Positions 7,787 through 60,231 of a stretch of DNA of 64,000 bases are shown in pieces. Source of the DNA: Eledone cirrhosa (lineage: Eukaryota); the NCBI GenBank assembly GCA_964016885.1, contig OZ024753.1, positions 4,402,001 to 4,466,000 of the forward strand. Reading direction: 5' to 3'. How positions within the stretch are numbered: the stretch's first letter is position 1; each line of letters starts with the position of its first letter. Below the pieces are notes generated by a model. The model was not told where the DNA came from and did no database searches. It was given only the letters and a program-made list of their open reading frames with translations. Both the position numbers and the translations under genes were made by a program.

Positions 7787-8382
7787 ATGGTGGCTGCCAA
7801 CTCGTCTTCGAGTACGGCCACTACTTTATATCCATGTAGGAGAACCCCTACCGATGCGCTGAACGAGTGTGACTTTTTAGTCCAGCCAGCGACTTGAAAA
7901 CTCTGGTACAAAAACTACACCTGTGACAATTATTGACAGTGCTGGGCCCATGGTACCATGTGCAGAGAGATCTCCAGATATAAAGCAATGCCTGTGCCGT
8001 GAAGCTTTTATAGTGAGCAAAGGCACTGCACAAAGCCAGTCCCACTCTCTTAACCAAGATGATATTTACCAAAAAGAAAAACAAGTCAACATCATTGGAT
8101 ATCATCAGGGTTGCAGGTGTTATATCAGAGTTTTCCTTCTCCTAGAATTCTGGCTTGACAAAGGCTAAGGGGTCATCTCTCCCGGTGATTTTGGATGACC
8201 ATTGAATCTTAAGAGCTCCTTTGCCCTTTGACAGGATTGGTTTTTAGTCCTGCAGGATGTCCAAAGTCACCCTCCTCACCAAGAAACCTCGGTAGGGTTG
8301 CCAGTTTAGTCGCCAACGACCCGACCATGAGACAGGTTGTACTGGGATACATGTTACCAGTAGCACCAACTGGTGACCTGAC
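7787..8382 (-). mobile_element. full-length ~600-bp non-autonomous RTE-derived retroelement, copy A
   Basis: Near-identical to copies at 17720, 32881 and 34221. Minus strand has an RTE-type 5' UTR motif (CTAGGAGAAGGAAAACTCTG), a C-terminal C2H2-like peptide [23 protein letters not shown], a 3' stem-loop CTCG-N4-CGAG and a microsatellite tail. The RTE assignment rests on recalled family features. Confidence 0.85.
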
Positions 8383-11192: not shown

Positions 11193-11380
11193 GGGCGGTG
11201 GATTGGCAGTATCGGTGGAGTGTCGGACGCCATGCTTTCTAGCATAGTTACGTCCCTTTACGATCTGAGTTCAAATCCCGCCGAGGTTGACTTTGCCTTT
11301 CATCCTTACGGGGTCGATAAAATAAAGTACCAGTAATGCACTGGGTAATTGCTGGCCTTGTGCCTAAAGTAGAAACAATT
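11193..11380 (+). mobile_element. full-length tRNA-derived SINE (~190 bp)
   Basis: A-box-like TGGCAGTATCGG, B-box GTTCAAATCCC, central GAGGTTGACTTTGCCTTTCATCCTTACGGGGTCGATAAAATAAAGTACCAG (resembles the Meta/MESC SINE domain, from memory), flanked by direct repeat ATTATTAATATTA. Confidence 0.9.
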
Positions 11381-17719: not shown

Positions 17720-18325
17720 ATGGTGGCTGCCAACTCGTTTTCGAGTACGGCCACTACTTTATATCCATGTAGGAGAACCCCTACCGATGCGCTGAACGAG
17801 TGTGACTTTTTAGTCCAGCCAGCGACTTGAAAACTCTGGTACAAACACTACACCTGTGACAATTATTGACACATAGTGCTGGGCCCATGGTAGCATGTGA
17901 CGACAAGTGCAGAGAGATCTCCAGATATAAAGCAATGCCTGTGCCGTGAAGCTTTTATAGTGAGCAAAGGCACTGCACAAAGCCAGTCCCACTCTCTTAA
18001 CCAAGATGATATTTACCAAAAAGAAGAACAAGTCAACATCATTGGATACCATCAGGGTTGCAGGTGCTATATCAGAGTTTTCCTTCTCCTAGAATTCTGC
18101 CTTGACAAAGGCTAAGGGGTCAGCTCTCCCGGTGATTTTGGATGGCCATTGACTCTTAAGAGCTCCTTTGCCCTTTGACAGGTTTTGTTTTTAGTCCTGC
18201 AGGATGTCCAAAGTCACCCTCCTCACCAAGAAACCTTGGTGGGGTTGCCAGTTTAGTCGCCAACGACCCGACCATGGGACAGGTTGTACTGGGATACATG
18301 TTACCAGTAGCACCAACTGGTGACC
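17720..18325 (-). mobile_element. full-length RTE-derived non-autonomous retroelement, copy B
   Basis: Near-identical to copy A; 5' end begins GGTCACC; microsatellite on both sides. Confidence 0.85.
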
Positions 18326-24078: not shown

Positions 24079-24245
24079 TGGCTTGGCCGTATCGATGGAG
24101 CATGAGACACTATGCTTTACAGCATAGAGTTATGGCCATTTACGTTCTGAGTTCATATCTCGCCGAGGTTAGCTTTGCCTTTCATCCGTACGATGTCGAT
24201 AAAATAAAGCACCAGCAATGCACTGTAACTGCTGGCCTTTTGCCA
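24079..24245 (+). mobile_element. diverged tRNA-derived SINE
   Basis: TTGGCCGTATCG ... CTGAGTTCATATCTCGCCGAGGTTAGCTTTGCCTTTCATCC ... GTCGATAAAATAAAGCACCAG matches the 11193 family. Confidence 0.8.
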
Positions 24246-25116: not shown

Positions 25117-26009
25117 AGATAATGTATAATAATGAGTAAACAAAAATCTTCATCGTGAATATAAATATACATATTTATATATTAGCGTATGAACATTTAT
25201 GACAATAACCTAAACATTAAATAAAAATTAAATAAACGTAGAGGATAGCTTGAGAATTGTGGTTGTAGTTTAGAGACGACGGATTAAGGTAAGCTTCAAA
25301 TTGATGTACACCTATTTAGAAACTAATAAACCCAAAACAGTTATAATAACATTAAAACATATTTTTAATGATTAAATTATAACATAAGTAATGAAAATAA
25401 CTACATTTCTTGAGTGATACATATTTCTCTGTGTGAATCGTTACAGACAGGGTTTATTGAGACTTTCTGAGAGACGTAGATATTGAGATTGCCTATGTTG
25501 ATGAATCTGCGTAACTCGTTTGGTTCTTTCTCAGCATGCATTCTAATAAATTAAAATTAGAAAGGAAGAAGGGATTATATTGTCTGATGTTTCGGTATAT
25601 GAGATAGTAACTGTTGGCAATTCTGTTTATTACGTCAGGGTGAAGAGCATCGTATTATGTTTTACATTTGACATTGAAAACATTCTCCAACCTATTAGAT
25701 GCTATTCCATAAGCCATTAGGAGCCGGTATATTTCTAGATCTTCGGAAAGAAGCAACGGTAACACATTCACAATGGAGATATGGTTCCTATGAACCATAT
25801 TATAAAGAGCAACAATAGTCAGGTTGACTATGGAAAACATTAGTTCTAAGTAGATTAGCTTAATATTGTCAGGTACCACTATCGCTGTACTGATTACATG
25901 GCCGGGACGTCGGCGACTAAAAGAATATTTGTCTCACTGTATCTAAGATCTAATACAAATATGCATCCTATATGCATATGTATATATATATATAAATATA
26001 AATATATAT

Positions 26010-32880: not shown

Positions 32881-33488
32881 ATGGTGGCTGCCAACTCGTT
32901 TTCGAGTACGGCCACTACTTTATATCCATGTAGGAGAACCCCTACTGATGAGCTGAACTAGTGTGACATTTTAGTCCAGCCAGCGACTTGAAAACTCTGG
33001 TACAAACACTACACTTGTGACAATTATTGACACATAGTGCTGGGCCGCTGTTACCATGTGACGCCAAGTGCAGAGAGATCTCCAGATATAAAGCAATGCC
33101 TGTGCCGTGGAGCTTTTATAGTGAGCAAAGGCACTGCACAAAGCCAGTCCCACTCTCTTAACCAAGATGATATTTACCAAAAAGAAGAAAAAGTCAACAT
33201 CATTGGATACCATCAGGGTTGCAGGTGCTATATCAGTTTTCCTTCTCCTAGAATTCTGCCTTGACAAAGGCTAAGGGGTCATCTCTCCCGGTGATTTTGG
33301 ATGGCTATTGACTCTTAAGAGCCCCTTTGCCTTTTGACAGGTTTTGTTTTTAATCCTGCAGGATGTCCAAAGCCACGCTCCTCACCAAGGATCGTTGGTG
33401 GGGTTGCCAGTTTAGTCGCCAACAACCCGACCATGAGACAGGTTGTACTGGGATACATGTTACCAGTAGCACCAACTGGTGACCTGAC
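32881..33488 (-). mobile_element. full-length RTE-derived non-autonomous retroelement, copy C
   Basis: Aligns with copies A and B; preceded at ~32815-32855 by a related 3'-end fragment (CTCG-TTAT-CGAG hairpin). Confidence 0.85.
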
Positions 33489-34220: not shown

Positions 34221-34830
34221 ATGGTGGCTGCCAACTCGTTTTCGAGTACGGCCACTACTTTATATCCATGTAGGAGAACCCCTACCGATGCGCTGAACGA
34301 ATGTGACCTTTTAGTCCAGCCAGCGACTTGAAAACTCTGGTACAAAGACTACACTTGTGACCATTATTGACACATAGTGCAGGGCCCATGGTACCATGTG
34401 ATGACAAGTGCAGAGAGATTTCCAGATATAAAGCAATGCCTGTGCTGTGAAGCTTTTATAGTGAGCAAAGGCACTGCACAAAGCCAGTCCCACTCTCTTA
34501 ACCAAGATGATATTTACCAAAAAGAAGAACAAGTCAACATCATTGGATACCATCAGGGTTGCAGGTGTTATATCAGAGTTTTCCTTCTCCTAGAATTCTG
34601 CCTTGACAAAGGCTAAGGGGTCATCTCTCCCGGTGATTTTGGATGGCTATTGAGTCTTAAGAGCTCCCTTGCCCTTTGACAGGTTTTGTTTTTAGTCCTG
34701 CAGGATGTCCAAAGTCACCCTCCTCACCAAGAAACCTTGGTGGGGTTGCCAGTTTAGTCTCCAACGACCCGACCATGAGACAGGTTGTACTGGGATACAT
34801 GTTAAGAGTAGCACCAACTGGTGACCTGAC
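34221..34830 (-). mobile_element. full-length RTE-derived non-autonomous retroelement, copy D
   Basis: Aligns with copies A-C; microsatellite on both flanks. Confidence 0.85.
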
Positions 34831-42910: not shown

Positions 42911-43122
42911 AGGGGGTCATCTCCCCTGGTGATTTTGGATGGCCATTGACTCTTAAGAGCTTCTTTTACCTTTGACAGGTTTTGTTTTTAGTCATGCAGG
43001 ATGTCCAAAGTCACCCTCCTCACCAAGAAACCTTGGTGGGGTTGCCAGTTTAGTAGCCAACGACCCGACCATGGGACAGGTTGTACTGGAATACATGTTA
43101 TCAGTAGAACCAACTGGTGACC
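42911..43122 (-). mobile_element. 5' third of the RTE-derived retroelement (3' part missing), copy E
   Basis: Matches 18116-18325 of copy B, including the GGTCACC start and the CCATGGGACAGG variant. Confidence 0.85.
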
Positions 43123-44218: not shown

Positions 44219-44406
44219 GGGCGTTGGATTGGCAGTATCGGTAGAGGGCCGGACGCCATGCTTTCCAGCATAGTTACGTCACTTTACGATCTGAGTAAAA
44301 TCCCGCCGAGTTTGACTTTGCCTTTCATCCTTACGGGATCGATAAAATAAGGTACCAGTAATGCACTGTGTAATTGCTGGCCTTGTGCCTAAAGCAGAAC
44401 AAATTA
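44219..44406 (+). mobile_element. full-length tRNA-derived SINE
   Basis: End-to-end match with the 11193 copy; the B-box is damaged (GAGTAAAATCCC). Confidence 0.9.
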
Positions 44407-46703
44407 TTTCTCTAATAATTGAATTCAACATTTAATGAATGCCAAGCTATTGGCTGTCAATCTACTATATGGTCGTATTTAGCCATTTGAATGTACTATA
44501 TATATATGCCATGTACGGCAACACTCATCTTTTTCCATTTCTCCGAGGGTTATAAACCCCACTATCAGGCTAGAAATTTCTTTAGTCTAAAATACGGTGA
44601 AAGCTTATAATTTCTAATTTCTAATTTCAAACTCGCGCACCGTTTCAAAAAACATACTTACATGTTTACATTTATAATATATATATATTAGTTTAACCCT
44701 TGAAATAGCAAGAAGAGAGTCGTAACGTTTCATACACTAGGCCTTCATCTGAAGATAGAGTAAGAAATAGAAGATAAATATAAAATAAAGAGTGATACAA
44801 GGAATGAACGAAGAGTGGGTGGTCAAAATGTCAGTGGAAAGAAGAGGCGAAATCACACGCTTAAACCTTTTTGTAGCTTAGTCAGAACAAAAGTAAAAGT
44901 GGATGAATTATTGACTAAGAGGGCAGTGGTAAGAACATGAAAATAATTTAGGGGATGGATTGTAGTTGTATACATAATTTATATCAAAGTATTGTTCAGC
45001 AATAGGCAATGTGTGAAGGTTCGCCAAGAGGCAACCAAGGAACACGTGCTTGTGACAAGATTCCTTGAAGCGTGTGACTATTCCGTTGTTCTCCATAACT
45101 ATTCACATTGTATATGTATATCAACTAACGTTGTCTCTCTGATCCCAAATATATAAAATATGTATGGAAAATAAATCATTCATAATATAATTTCTATGAA
45201 TATCCACTATAAATTGAATGTATATTTAAGTATTTTCCTAATTATTTGCTATAGAACTATACGCCTGCTAATGATGTATAATGCATTCTATAGTACCATC
45301 TATGATTTTCGTTTTTTTCTGAAGATTAGAAGTTTTTTAGATAAGGCATTTCGCTAATTTATTATTATGTCTTGATTTATTAATGAAATAATATTTTACC
45401 TGAGGGTATATTTCTAAGAAATGCAGTTCTCATTTGGTATACTAAAGTCATGTTTAAGTTTGTTTCGTCTCCAGATATCAATACCACATAATTGGCTAAA
45501 TGTTCTACTACAGCAACCTCTTATGTATATATACATACAAAATATGTATAAATGTTTCTATATGTTTCCCTGACTCTCAGAATTCTTATATATATATATA
45601 GTTTATGGGTTGTATGCATATGCGTGGATGTGTCAGTGTGATTTCTATAAGTGGAGGATTGAAGTCTATATGACACTAAAGCTTATACATCACAAAAGAA
45701 ACATCACTATGACATTTTATACATAAACACATAAAAGAAGATGCATCTACTTTATGTGTTAGATAAATATATGCGAATATATATTAATCTATATAGATAT
45801 CTATATATCTAAACGTGTCTACTCTGCCCATTGCACACACAACCCAACCTTTTTTTTGTGTTGTTTCTAATTATCATTCTCTGATTCTTTTATTATTAAC
45901 TCTAATGCCAAATGTATCTGTTTGTTGTGATGTATAACTCTTCTGTTCTGCTTTTCTCTGTGTCTATGTTGCCGTTCCTCTTGCGCACTCTCTAAATGCC
46001 AAATATATCACGTTATCATAATAAATATACTAGCAGTAATTAATCAGATCATACATATAAATCAAACAGATACTTACATATATGCACAAACACAGGACAA
46101 AAGCCCAAATGAAGAGAAACAAACATCAATACATAGACTACCCTAACCCTAATTATACTACGCCCCCCAATACCTAAACCTAATCAAAGACAACACGTAA
46201 TTGAATAACATAACTCTGACACTATATATAAACCTAGTACAGAAACTAATCCTAAACAAAGCGCAACCTGAAATCACGTGTAACGCTAATACTAACGCTA
46301 CCTCAAACTACTTACGCTGACATTAAGGCTAAACCTAAAATTAACCAAGTTGGGCCTGTATATGTAAGGTTTTGTGTCAGAATGTGCGTCTCAAAAAACC
46401 TACTTCATCTCATGTAATTGACGGTAAATATTGTGAATCACATAAAATGTGAGATCCTGAGCAAGATGATATTAAATGGCTAATCTATATTACATCTAAT
46501 TGCAATGTTTGCAGGTCTATGAATATAGCATGTCTTTCAAATATACAATATGACCTTTCATGGATGATAAATATATTTATATATAAACTATATGTTTTGA
46601 TAAAACAAATATTACTTGGATCATCAAAAATACAAAAATTTAAAGGAATTTTAATTGGAATTAATTCAGCTATTTATCTCAATCGTCGATGCTACAGCTT
46701 TTC

Positions 46704-46958: not shown

Positions 46959-47186
46959 ACTGATTTCATGTAATGCAATAATCAAAAGAGCTTTTTTGGC
47001 GTGTTCGTCAACAGTGGAGTATAATCCAGTTTCTAAGTTAAAGTGGAATATACTCACACAATACTACAAAACAGAGGTCAAACATGACATTATATGTGTA
47101 AAAATATGCACCCATGAAATTCAACGTGTCCCTAAACCGTTTATTAACCTTTCGTATACAGCCTTTACGGTGTATAATAACTGAGA

Positions 47187-48098
47187 ATGAAGCGGGCAAA
47201 TAATCGGTTTGAAATTGATGGGAGTGAGCATCTGAAGAAATATGGCTACACAATTTTGTCAACCCTAGATGAAGGGTCATTTGCAAAGGTCAAAGAAGGG
47301 TACGACGAAAATAATAAACGGAAAGCTGCAATTAAGATTATAGATGAAAGAGCTGTAAGAAAAAATTTCAAAGTGAAATTCCTTCCTAGAGAATTGGCTA
47401 TATTTCCGATGTTAGATCATCCAAATATTATTAAACTATTTCATGAAATACGCGTGGGCCATAAGATTTATGTTGTAATGGAATTTGCAGGACATGGTAA
47501 TTTACTTGACTATGTTGAACTCCATGGAGGACTTTTAGAAACGAAAGCAAAAATATTTTTTGCTTCAATTTTAAGTGCCATATCATATATGCACAGTAAA
47601 CAACTAGTGCACAGAGATATAAAATGTGAAAATATATTACTGAACAGAGATAACGAGGTGAAAGTTAGTGATTTTGGTTTTGCACGTGAAATTAAAGAGG
47701 GACAACTAAGTTCTACATTTTGTGGTAGTATGGCTTATTCATGCCCTGAGATATTACAAAAGAAACCGTATTACCCCATGTTAGCTGATGCTTGGGCACT
47801 TGGTATTGTTCTTTTCAAAATGATATTCAACAGATTCCCCTATAAATCGCATGATATGGGCAACATTATTAAACTGCAAATAGAGAAGAAATTTTCATAT
47901 CCTAAAGTTGTTTCTTACTCGCTTCAGGAATTGATAGGCAACATTCTGGAACCGGAGGTTGAGAAAAGGTATGGAGTATCAGATATCATTAAACACAATT
48001 GGACTAATTACGCACACACAGAAAAGAAAACTAGTATGCATAAAACGGGATCGGTACACAAGAATGTGAACGAAGAAACTGCAGCTTCTGCAGTTTGA
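47187..48098 (+). CDS. TSSK: testis-specific serine/threonine kinase (TSSK family, CAMK group), single coding exon, 303 aa
   Basis: Uninterrupted ORF with all kinase subdomains: LDEGSFAKV, AAIK, TSSK-typical KFLPREL, HRDIKCENILL, DFGFAR, LSSTFCGSMAYSCPE and DAWALG. The specific paralog cannot be assigned by eye. Confidence 0.93.
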   Translation: MKRANNRFEIDGSEHLKKYGYTILSTLDEGSFAKVKEGYDENNKRKAAIKIIDERAVRKNFKVKFLPRELAIFPMLDHPNIIKLFHEIRVGHKIYVVMEFAGHGNLLDYVELHGGLLETKAKIFFASILSAISYMHSKQLVHRDIKCENILLNRDNEVKVSDFGFAREIKEGQLSSTFCGSMAYSCPEILQKKPYYPMLADAWALGIVLFKMIFNRFPYKSHDMGNIIKLQIEKKFSYPKVVSYSLQELIGNILEPEVEKRYGVSDIIKHNWTNYAHTEKKTSMHKTGSVHKNVNEETAASAV

Positions 48099-56319: not shown

Positions 56320-58228
56320 AGGGAGTGTAACTTGAGGTTACTGTAGGTTCACCCGGGTGAGCACTCGATGCTTAGGTTCACTTCAATGTCGAGGTGTAGA
56401 TCTAGACAGAGTGTATTATAGTGAAATAAGATAACTAGGACGATTGGTTACTCCTTTATTATGTTTATTGGCTGGTGACGCGCATTTCACCACCGATCAG
56501 GTTCGATCTGTGTCGATCTGACCCGGCTCTGTAAGCCGCAGCTCGTCAGACCACTTGTAATGTTAATGGAAATTGAATACATGCTGTATGATAAAGTCAG
56601 AAGTTCCTATGGTGGTCATTAAAGTTTGTTTTGATTGGTGGTTTAATTCATAGGGATTATTTTGCCTGTAGAGTTTGTGGGGGTGAGTGTGTTGATAAGT
56701 TGGTGGTGTCGGTCGCAGGTTGAAGTGGGCGGTGGTGTGAGGGTGCTGGTTGTCGTTAGACAGTGTGGCATGTAGATGTGGCTGATTTTTGTTTGTGGTG
56801 TGGGTGTGGTGTTGTTGTTTTTTGATAAAGATGAAAGGTTGCGGTGTTTATGGTGGTGTGATGATTGTGTTCGTGGTTTCATTTCCATAAGGAGATACAT
56901 ATATAGACACACTTAGTCTGACAAATACGTTGTATACATACACATGTGTATATATATAGATGGCGGTTGTACACATATACTTACACACAGACACACACGC
57001 GTTGTTTAGGGAGGGATGATATGTGTTGGTGATGTTGATGGCTGTCGAAGTATGGCGACGTGCTTGGTGGTGGGGGTTGGAAGGTGGGTGCATTGCGACA
57101 TGATATTTACAGGATCGAATTTTACGATGGATTACAGTTTTAAAAAAGTGACATAGGGGAAAACAAGGAGGTAAATGAGGGATGGTGGACGTATGGCGAT
57201 GCGTTTGGTGGTGGTGGTGGTGGGGGGGGGGTGATTTGTTCGACATTATATTTACAGGACCGGATGTTACGACGAGTTACAAGTTAGAACCTGACAGGGA
57301 AGACACATAGAACACAATCGTACTGAGATGAGGGATGCAGGGCGATGTGTTTGTTGGTGTTGATGGGTGCGACATGATGTTTACAAGATCTGATCTTACA
57401 ATGGGTTACATCTTATGGAAGACAAATGTACTGAGATGAGGGGCGATGTGGAAAGACAAAGGTGGTTATCCTTATGTTGAGTCAGGGTTAGTGGCTGGCC
57501 CTCGGCCGAATGTTTGTGCAGAGAAGGTGGTCATCCTGGTGTGTCAGCAGTTTATAATTATGTAGATCTTCAGTTTATGGTCGATTTCAATTTAATGATC
57601 TCAGCCGCCTCGGCCAGGCATAACCTGCAGTGTTTTCTGTCGTGGGGGAGTTGGGCCACGTGTCTTTTAACTGAACATTTGATCTGGTATTCCATGTTCT
57701 CGTTTTTGAGGTCCCAGATCAAGTCCGCCAGTCTTGTTTGGGATCCTTTGGGCCTGTGTTTGAAGGAGCTTTTATGGTTATACCAGCGCTCCTTAAACGT
57801 AGTCGAGGTCGCGCCTATGTAGGAGTACTCTTTTCGGCCAGCTGTGACATCGCACTGGTTAATAATGTTTTTAACGAGACACTCTCCGTTTAATGGGCAT
57901 TCTGCCCACTTTTTGCAGTTGCAGTTGTGGTTTATGTGTTTGTTGTGAGGTTGTCGGTTGTTCGTATTCTGTGTGGAGCTGGCATGTAGGTTGTTGTGCG
58001 TGTGGTTTCGTTCTGGGTTGTGCTAGTGATTGGCTGTGGTGCTATCATGTGTTTCCGTATTTTTGTCATATTTGTGTGTGCTATCGTGTCGCCTAGATTT
58101 GGTGTTGCGAAGAAGGAGAATTTGACAGTGTGTCTATTAAAGAGCTTGTGGTATTTATGTGTGGGTGGAAAGGATTGTTCCAGAGCTCTGAAGAAGGTTG
58201 CCGGTATATTGTGGCAATGTGTATAGAG
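56320..58228 (-). mobile_element. 5'-truncated Penelope-like element: RT C-terminus, GIY-YIG endonuclease, long 3' region and hammerhead-bearing pseudo-LTR
   Basis: Minus strand translates to FFRALEQSFPPTHKYHKLFNRHTVKFSF...CNCKKWAECPLNGECLVKNIINQCDV...YSYIGATSTTFKERWYNHKSSF...IWDLK...CRLCLAEAAEII (57570-58200), which is typical of Penelope elements. Hammerhead at 56473-56553. Confidence 0.85.
56473..56553 (-). ncRNA. type I hammerhead ribozyme with an expanded stem II
   Basis: UGGU-CUGACGA-[54 nt]-GAAA-U-GCGC-GUC-ACCA: intact core, perfect 4-bp stem I, GUC cleavage triplet and palindromic loop III; AAUAAA follows. Confidence 0.75.
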
Positions 58229-58372
58229 TACGGGGCGTTGTACTATGTCACGTGTCTGAGTTCAAATCCCGCCGATGTTAACTTTGTCTTTCATACTTAT
58301 GGAGTCAATAAAATAAAGTACCAGTAATACACTGATATATTTGCTGGCCTTGTGCCAAAAGTAGAAACAATT
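58229..58372 (+). mobile_element. 5'-truncated tRNA-derived SINE abutting the Penelope element
   Basis: CTGAGTTCAAATCCCGCCGATGTTAACTTTG...AAAATAAAGTACCAG...GCCTTGTGCCAAAAGTAGAAAC. Confidence 0.85.
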
Positions 58373-59193: not shown

Positions 59194-59379
59194 GGGGCGG
59201 TGGATTGGCAGTATCGGTAGAGGGTCGGACGCCATGCTTTCCAGCATAGTTACGTCCCTTTACGATCTGAGTTCAAATCTCGCCGAGGTTGACTTTGCCT
59301 TTCACCCTTACGGGGTCGATAAAATAAAGTACCAGTAATGCACTGGGTAATTGTTGGCCTTGTGCCTAAAGTAGAAACA
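59194..59379 (+). mobile_element. full-length tRNA-derived SINE
   Basis: End-to-end match with the 11193 copy. Confidence 0.9.
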
Positions 59380-59679
59380 GTTATGTTTAGGGAGAGGGAT
59401 AGGAAGGATGAAAGGCAGATATGGAGTCACCAGAATGTGAAACTAGTATATATAGGGAGTAGCGAATTAACCCAAAGCGTTTTATTCAACGCACTAAAGA
59501 TTTTGCCAATGTACTATACCTTCTCAATGATTACGGCAAACACACAGACACACACACATATACACACACACATATATATATATATACATACACACACACA
59601 CAAATATATATATACATACACACACAAACACACAAGCGCGCGCACACACACACACACACAAAAAAAATATAGATATATT

Positions 59680-60231
59680 ATGGCTGCCCCCTCGTTAACG
59701 AGTAATGCCATTGCATGATATACCATTATTAATAATTATTAATTAATTCTATCGTGCAATGTCTGTGCATGAAGATATTTTTTAAAGTGAGGAAAGACTG
59801 TGCACTGAGTCAATCACACTCTCTGAGCGACAGTAGCTATAACCCGAAGAGAAGAAAAGATCAACATCATCGGTAACTACTGAGCCGCAGGTTTTATATC
59901 GGAGTCATGCCAGTTTCCTGAGTTGCCTTCTCCTAGAAAAAAGTCACATATGGAACACGGAGAAAACAAAGGCTAGGGGTCCTTCACTCCCAGTGGTTTA
60001 ACCGTGCGGTACATGTGAATATACATATTTACACACTTTTGGATGGCAGTTGGCTCTTATGAGTTTCTTCTGCCCTTTGTCAGGTTTTGAATTGTGTCCT
60101 GCAGGCTGTCCAAAATCACCCTCCTCACCAAGTAAACTTGGTGGGGTTGCCGGTTTAGTCACCGATGACCCAACCATGCGACAGATTGTACTGGTTTACA
60201 TGTTACCAGTAGCACTCAAGAGTGACCCGAC
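59680..60231 (-). mobile_element. diverged sister family of the RTE-derived non-autonomous retroelement, copy G
   Basis: Clearly homologous 5' ~230 nt (GTCGGGTCAC...GGTGAGGAGGGTGA...CTAGGAGAAGG) and 3' hairpin CTCG-TTAA-CGAG, but no zinc-finger-coding segment; microsatellite flanks. Confidence 0.75.

Follow-up and report, generated by a model that had tools for sequence, protein, structure and literature searches.

The repeat that ends at position 18325 of the window, a 64,000-nt stretch of the Eledone cirrhosa genome analysed at full length, begins on the minus strand with a structured RNA, and the question is which kind of RNA this is and what it may do for the element that carries it. The initial annotation described an RTE-derived element whose 5' end folds into a conserved, covarying RNA structure, and proposed an atypical HDV-like self-cleaving ribozyme, naming a different conserved fold as the alternative. 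The letters are at that place, the structure is conserved, covarying and pseudoknotted, and it lies at the extreme 5' end of the element; it is the alternative that fits.

The element is one copy of a repeat of about 610 nt (family A), with copies 95-97% identical at 7787-8378, 32881-33484 and 34221-34826 (Table 1). Searched in the 3.0-Gb genome, a 35-mer of the repeat finds 11,472 exact matches and its reversed control 0. The repeat content by itself suggests an octopod host. Head positions are numbered from the G of GUCAG (G1), position p being window coordinate 18330 minus p. The copies sort into four families that share the head, A to D, with 70, 49, 6 and 16 of 141 copies, respectively; a fifth, older family E, recovered using only the pattern's 5' side, has 461 pattern matches in the genome, some of which are family A variants.

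The repeat has no ORF of its own, and its 5' and 3' parts are both RTE-like. At 97% identity, the head matches the start of a LINE at locus L150, which carries a 903-aa frame with endonuclease, reverse transcriptase (RT) and DUF6451 matches; the derivation from RTE, as first annotated, is borne out. The 3' part contains, in translation, a zinc-finger-like ORF remnant, and the ORF of the homologous locus L311 ends in a similar C-terminal motif. We take the label RTE from domain content and familiar motifs. Because of the L150-like start and the zinc-finger-like remnant, we class the repeat from its letters with the bipartite elements of PMC5786205, as a non-autonomous element of RTE type. Bipartite elements of the Bov-A, RTESINE and WALLSI3 type likewise combine an RTE 5' UTR with an RTE 3' end and have high copy numbers and microsatellite tails (PMC5786205); unlike them, the present element comes in five families, with one head over bodies and tails of differing origin, and the same head is also found on an RTE LINE that carries another head elsewhere. 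The body of the element is about 69% identical to the 5' UTR of another RTE family. A search for the exact autonomous LINE partner of the 3' end found none, and the RT family search brought up other LINE and LTR families. Contigs of four sequencing runs contain the element or parts of it, contigs being unable to show transcript starts, and there was no RNA run among the listed runs that hold the element.

Table 1. Features of the element and its copies in the window
Feature	Coordinates	Strand	Remarks
Family A non-autonomous RTE element	17720..18325	-	606 nt; copy without head positions 1-4
xrRNA-like domain (predicted)	18273..18325	-	Head 5-57 here; 1-57 in intact copies
Lone C20 between P2 and P3	18310..18310	-	Subclass-1a discriminator, as defined in PMC8374639
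H-type pseudoknot	18247..18272	-	Head 58-83; stems 58-61/71-74 and 66-70/79-83, linker UAAA
Further conserved 5' UTR hairpins	18140..18241	-	89-106, 110-129 and on, to about position 190
Head shared with the 5' end of the RTE LINE at L150	18055..18325	-	97% identity over 271 nt
RTE-type 3' part	17720..17882	-	ORF end with CxxC...HxxxxH motif, short 3' UTR, then microsatellite
Intact family A head	8300..8382	-	G1 at 8382; top window match of the flavivirus-trained model, 25.4 bits, E 1.8e-6
Intact family A head	33406..33488	-	G1 at 33488; 24.7 bits, E 3.3e-6
Family A head, G1 kept, two P3 substitutions	34748..34830	-	19.4 bits
Family B head (copy G)	60149..60231	-	G1 at 60231; 14.8 bits
Family A fragment	42913..43122	-	5' end 4-5 nt short; 3'-truncated
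Degenerate head with internal deletion	25839..25930	+	24.3 bits, E 0.0017, in a separate scan

The 5' end of the element is sharp. Among 205 copies found via an internal anchor, 149 start at G1, 4 nt upstream of 18325. Intact copies had initially been described as starting at either of two G residues 4 nt apart; the copies at 18325 and about 43122 are instead 4-5 nt short at the 5' end and represent no alternative start.

The HDV-like fold itself did not hold. HDV-like ribozymes are nested double pseudoknots with a 6-7-bp P1 from the 5' G, a 3-bp P3, a 7-8-nt L3 and a P2 closing the 3' end; a descriptor with this definition, run without a positive control, found a solution in 0/23 aligned heads. 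The proposed P1, P2, P3 and P4 are not kept across homologues: 79.6% of 411 cells are paired in the 23 heads, as much as is reached by 317 of 500 shuffles, and the central P2 pair forms in two heads only. The supposedly catalytic, unpaired C of CUAA in J4/2 is C74, which in the supported fold pairs with G58 in 23/23 heads, a pair that is invariant and hence gives no proof by covariation. In the Rfam comparison of the 18325 copy, an intact copy and 18 homologue loci, no ribozyme family was found at E up to 10, the models for twister, pistol, hatchet, hammerhead and hairpin ribozymes included. For the whole window, only microsatellite look-alikes were among the 150 Rfam matches listed.

One of the compensatory changes reported for copy G, GUCG/CGAC to GUCA/UGAC, has another explanation. 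A degenerate pattern gave 1,308 matches; of the first 100, counted by eye, 79 had neither change, 19 C-to-U only, two G-to-A only and none both; the counts at the same sites in 30 fetched loci were 22, 8, 0 and 0, respectively. Both sites of the change are CpG, and in the supported fold the two bases have different partners. The paired change of copy G is, on these counts, a pair of independent CpG-site changes. Of the initial annotation, three hairpins were recovered: the covarying one at head 8-19, the stem with a variable loop at 21-43, and a hairpin at 89-106. Several other readings were discarded. A second HDV-like register, in which 23-27 pair with 78-82, was abandoned in view of the covariation of 79-83 with 66-70. 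Inspection by eye, where homologues varied or motifs were absent, also disposed of a helix joining the 5' end over a long range to about position 150, of the palindromic loop as a kissing loop, and of a pistol, hatchet, twister or hairpin ribozyme. Single-sequence folding, which is nested and cannot display pseudoknots, gave weak z-scores (-0.35 to -2.87).

Homologous heads were collected with a gapped pattern that gave 97 matches in metagenome contigs; 36 of these failed a filter on positions outside the pattern and 61 passed, corresponding to 51 distinct cores and to 15 clusters besides the element's own families. An RTE-like frame lies downstream on the same strand in 16/61, and many of the remaining contigs break off too early. 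Between clusters, the frames mostly share 25-47% identity; in a comparison of proteins only, fish, lancelet, sea urchin and shrimp have relatives of one frame that are 70-78% identical to it. The RTE-type patterns gave no match in viral contigs and 0 and 1 matches in prokaryotic genomes, the single match being devoid of the loop and downstream pseudoknots. Nothing usable was obtained on target duplications in the metagenome loci. A deep contig (run X5, record 4) is about 86% identical to head 18-81 and has different flanking hairpins, being a further diverged head of another repeat family; a motif beside it is absent from the E. cirrhosa genome.

The alignment used for counting pairs (A3) comprises 23 hand-picked heads, namely 20 of the 51 distinct metagenome cores and three own copies; the rows with a long P2 (L269, L282 and L297) were left out. 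The fold supported by it is a three-way junction with P1 (3-7/46-50), a variable P2 (8-19), a lone C20, P3 (21-26/38-43), and two pseudoknots, PK1 (G1-C44) and PK2 (30-33/54-57), followed by an H-type pseudoknot (58-61/71-74 with 66-70/79-83). Across the 23 heads, 95.8% of 663 cells are paired and seven pairs have changed on both sides. None of 500 shuffles was as high on all five measures, related sequences being able to beat shuffles even without structure, and slid controls were at most 49% paired. The proportion of paired cells is 99.1% in P1, 97.8% in P2 and 98.6% in P3, the search pattern having fixed P3, C20 and the AAA linker beforehand in 20/23 rows. Covariation sits in P2 and the two larger pseudoknots, the second stem of the H-type pseudoknot changing on both sides in 3/5 pairs; P1, P3 and P4 are near-invariant, with no compensatory change among RTE heads. 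PK2 has 4 bp, or 5 bp in two clusters, and only 86.5% of its cells are paired because two rows are misaligned; one of its pairs is C-G in nine rows and A-U in eight, and another is U-A or C-G. PK1 is formed in 21/23 heads, neither base being part of the search pattern, and shows no covariation. Hairpins from head 89 on were read from the family consensus and homologue prints. In family E, 13 ungapped copies keep the majority letters of all downstream helices.

Among single letters of the head, G1 is found in 21/23 heads, U2, C44 and U42 in 23/23 and A22 in 22/23. The lone C20 is present in 23/23, imposed by the pattern in 20 of them, and independently in the in-genome families A-D. In the Zika virus structure the partner of the 5' U in a U-A-U triple is the second P3 pair; the corresponding letters, U2 in 23/23 and A22-U42 in 22/23, are in place, the triple itself being invisible in sequence. 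The stretch that runs from the last P3-loop base to the base following P1 measures 15 nt in 23/23 heads. Position 51, where a ring-closing contact is expected, varies (U in 16, C in 6 and A in 1).

The first domain of this arrangement matches the subclass-1a exoribonuclease-resistant RNA (xrRNA) of flaviviruses, a knotted RNA by which these viruses hold up RNA-degrading enzymes. Its published description includes a three-way junction with a 5-bp P1, a variable P2 and a P3 of 4-8 bp (PMC7527734), a single conserved C between P2 and P3 and a U-A-U triple of the 5' U with the junction (PMC8374639), a PK1 of 1-2 bp between the 5' G and a junction C and a PK2 of 2-7 bp between the P3 loop and the 3' side of P1 (PMC8571300), and a ring of about 15 nt around the 5' end (PMC8374639, PMC12081666). 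Judged by its letters, the RTE head has every one of the subclass-1a features that can be seen in a sequence. It shares with the viral xrRNAs (RF01415 and RF03547, Flavi_xrRNA) the 5' GU, the 5-bp P1, the variable P2, the lone C, a 6-bp P3 with A-U in second place, the C-N junction, a loop pseudoknot of 4-5 bp, the 15-nt span and, to judge from the inserted copies, probably 5' ends located 5-6 nt before P1. The differences are that it stands at the 5' end of a cellular retrotransposon and not in a viral 3' UTR, that the inner P1 pair and the first P3 pair are swapped (U-A for C-G), that an H-type pseudoknot comes next where the virus has a plain P4 hairpin, and that the head, which is predicted to be resistant, scores below the Rfam cut-off.

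The top Rfam match of an intact copy was RF01415 (Flavivirus_SLIV), with 23.4 bits, E 0.023 and the same three-way junction; the gathering cut-off is 54.5 bits, and RF03547 did not match the intact copy. Because this cut-off was missed, we do not file the head as a member of either family. The 18325 copy lacks G1-A4, which is why its Rfam scan missed the flavivirus family; without G1, U2 and two P1 pairs, this copy is therefore predicted to be non-resistant. In a 17-kb Rfam scan of 18 homologue loci no flavivirus match was found at E up to 10. For a direct comparison, 21 viral loci were fetched by motif, 17 of which lie on contigs 10.6-11.1 kb long, close to the 3' end; of the flavivirus-sized loci, four of six tested pass the Rfam cut-off for RF01415 or RF03547. 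A model built only from the 17 viral pieces (R1) placed the four G1-keeping heads as its top four matches in the 64 kb, at E-values, rough for both models, from 1.8e-6 to 9e-3, and the truncated 18325 copy sixth (E 0.11); it also found the head at E<0.05 in 20/38 homologue loci. In the opposite direction, a model of the RTE heads (R2) recognised the element at E up to 0.005 in 15/17 flavivirus-sized contigs and added one site, in L337, that the search pattern had left unmatched. The viral alignment (A2), from which five of the 21 loci were omitted (four not flavivirus-sized, one a near-duplicate), has 22 invariant columns; compared by eye, the RTE heads agree with 18 of these, and the remaining four make up two compensatory pair swaps. 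As the viral loci were chosen by shared motifs, the column comparison and the R2 test are partly circular.

A halted exoribonuclease should leave a trace in front of inserted copies. Xrn1 is reported to halt 5-6 nt before P1 (PMC5760640) or, as stated elsewhere, four nt upstream of PK1 (PMC12081666). The former distance corresponds here to 3-4 nt upstream of G1, so that new copies should carry 3-4 donor bases, which would break the purine-pyrimidine alternation of microsatellite flanks. The inserted copies do often have 3-4 extra bases before G1. In 90 copies with alternating flanks (the other 59 of 149 were left out of the count), the phase breaks at the step -4/-3 in 20 and at -5/-4 in 10, nine other steps having 0-5 breaks each and 13 in all; under a looser flank rule, the same two steps have 23/107 and 12/107 breaks. 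A nick in a pure alternating repeat cannot produce a phase break. In family E, TAT or ATG occupies -3..-1 in 16/20 copies, the counts at other offsets being 1-8 and that at one control offset 8/20. RTE target-site signatures are known (PMC6007223). The 12 copies with an informative duplication give a mixed result, the gaps in front of G1 measuring 0 in five, 2 in one, 3 in three, 4 in two and 7 in one; gaps of 0 are expected where the carried bases already stand at the end of the target. The bases at -4..-1 differ between families, and the junction falls at -3 or -4, where no base is conserved. Some heads (L245, L274, L280, L282, L311, L423 and L430) have further copies of the 5-nt start unit, whole or partial, in front of them; the partial copies of 2-4 nt fit carried-over donor bases.

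We conclude that the head most likely folds into the ring and works as an xrRNA of the subclass-1a type, stalling host 5'-3' exoribonucleases 5-6 nt before P1. Transcription reading through from host sequence would supply the RNA of the copies; once this is decapped or cleaved, Xrn1 or Xrn2 would shorten its leader as far as the ring, leaving a stable, protected 5'-monophosphate RNA that starts 3-4 nt upstream of G1, and an RTE reverse transcriptase acting in trans would copy this RNA through the knot, beginning at its 3' end. In vitro, xrRNAs are described to be passed by reverse transcription that comes from the 3' side (PMC5760640). Trimming to the ring combined with copying through the knot would account for the sharpness of the 5' ends as well as for the donor bases carried along. 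Without being a ribozyme, the head would do what HDV-like or twister ribozymes do for other RTE elements. Self-cleavage is used by R2, L1Tc and Perere-3 (PMC6765202, PMC8501958). Like the 5' HDV-like ribozymes of R2, L1Tc and some RTE and the twister variants of Schistosoma Perere-3, the head is a structured RNA that forms the very 5' end of a non-LTR element, likely frees the element RNA from read-through and is kept in non-autonomous derivatives; unlike them, it has no catalytic motif and a different topology, and the predicted end is a 5'-monophosphate made by a host enzyme in place of a 5'-OH from self-cleavage.

An internal or flanking promoter at a fixed distance could also set the 5' end, the xrRNA-like fold being real and protecting the RNA after decapping or else serving as a protein-binding, packaging or translation element. 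Promoters that measure from downstream elements are known for jockey-type LINEs, and one of this kind could produce a fixed start 3-4 nt upstream; conservation to about position 190, well beyond the xrRNA domain, and an extra G right before G1 in 7/149 copies of families A-D and 9/20 of family E (as ATG) would suit it as well. That extra G, however, lies inside the carried TATG word and not at the 5' edge, where a cap-derived G belongs, the bases at -4..-1 differ between families, and the spacing equals the published halt distance of Xrn1, all of which makes this explanation rather improbable. A self-cleaving ribozyme, either atypical HDV-like or of a new class that uses the double pseudoknot, would likewise give a sharp end (149/205), and the order P1-P3-PK2-P3'-P1'-PK2' recalls part of the HDV nesting; we nevertheless consider it very unlikely, as the HDV-like fold stays at shuffle level, neither the descriptor (0/23, no positive control) nor any Rfam ribozyme family recognised the heads, the junction shifts between -3 and -4 with no conserved bases, and a non-catalytic class already accounts for the fold.

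The likeness to flaviviruses might also be a matter of chance or superficial convergence, the head then being a structured 5' UTR without nuclease resistance. The scores against viral models are modest (15-28 bits), and the downstream pseudoknot is without counterpart in the viral loci. Yet all subclass-1a features that a sequence can test are present, the departures from viral invariants are compensatory, and the motif sits precisely at the 5' end in elements of lineages whose ORFs mostly share no more than 25-47% identity, so that coincidence seems barely credible. Returning to the xrRNA reading, we think it reasonably probable, with less assurance than for the head as such, that its parts hold jointly: that in several animal lineages RTEs have a functional subclass-1a xrRNA of the flavivirus type at their very 5' end, that trimming by host Xrn1/Xrn2, and not a ribozyme or promoter, defines their RNA, that the module has been swapped between LINE lineages, and that it has ancestry in common with the flavivirus element by transfer in either direction.

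The head seems to be a module that is passed between RTE lineages. In three loci (L159, L162 and L163) the L150-type LINE has an unrelated head, a second, GC-rich one with long hairpins, some 300 nt upstream of where the sequence matches L150 position 273; two heads joined to the same L150-type body at one point suggest 5' head swapping. The second head had no match to the xrRNA model in these loci. The abundant RTE family of this genome with long open frames (about 1,200-1,250 aa) has a different 5' end without the head (L453-L477, L478-L486), which counts against the xrRNA reading; its internal 5' UTR is common with families A and B. The four strong model matches upstream of this family, found in 3/11 stretches, fall beyond the 5' boundary that its copies share and, where their letters were displayed, are of family A type. 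Its AT-rich 5' region of about 1.9 kb has a sharp start with a splice-donor-like motif near it, and the family may have a promoter of its own. The RTE frame at L150:2589-5297 is 70% identical over its length to a lancelet protein, most other matches having 40-45%, and is a candidate for horizontal transfer. In three loci (L156, L159 and L152) the 5' part of the LINE copy is inverted, a pattern like that of twin priming. At G000:C2:220134719-220138168 at least eight family E head matches fall within 3.5 kb, some 95 nt apart, which suggests a tandem array of heads.

A 2021 review treats xrRNAs as characterised in viruses only and poses their existence in eukaryotic genomes as a question (PMC8374639, section 7). 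In the titles and abstract openings searched, where subscription papers are thinly covered, there was no report of an xrRNA in a retrotransposon; repeat libraries or supplements could hold such heads. The fold class is known, and its place and predicted job are new as far as the literature was searched. If the prediction is right, the head is a cellular xrRNA and offers a third way to a LINE 5' end beside promoters and ribozymes, and it explains why non-autonomous RTEs retain the extreme 5' end. The question of eukaryotic xrRNAs becomes directly testable with thousands of natural variants of the head, and that of a common origin of the flavivirus element and the RTE head is raised.

The window contains other features unrelated to the head. 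At 47181-48098 on the plus strand there is an intronless frame of 305 aa with Ser/Thr kinase motifs, which we take to resemble testis-specific kinases. Broken frames with a GIY-YIG-like motif at 57570-58261 on the minus strand are presumably, judging by this motif, remains of a Penelope-like element. An unrelated second short repeat family of about 180 nt has copies at 11193-11373, 24080-24244, 44219-44407 and 59195-59384.
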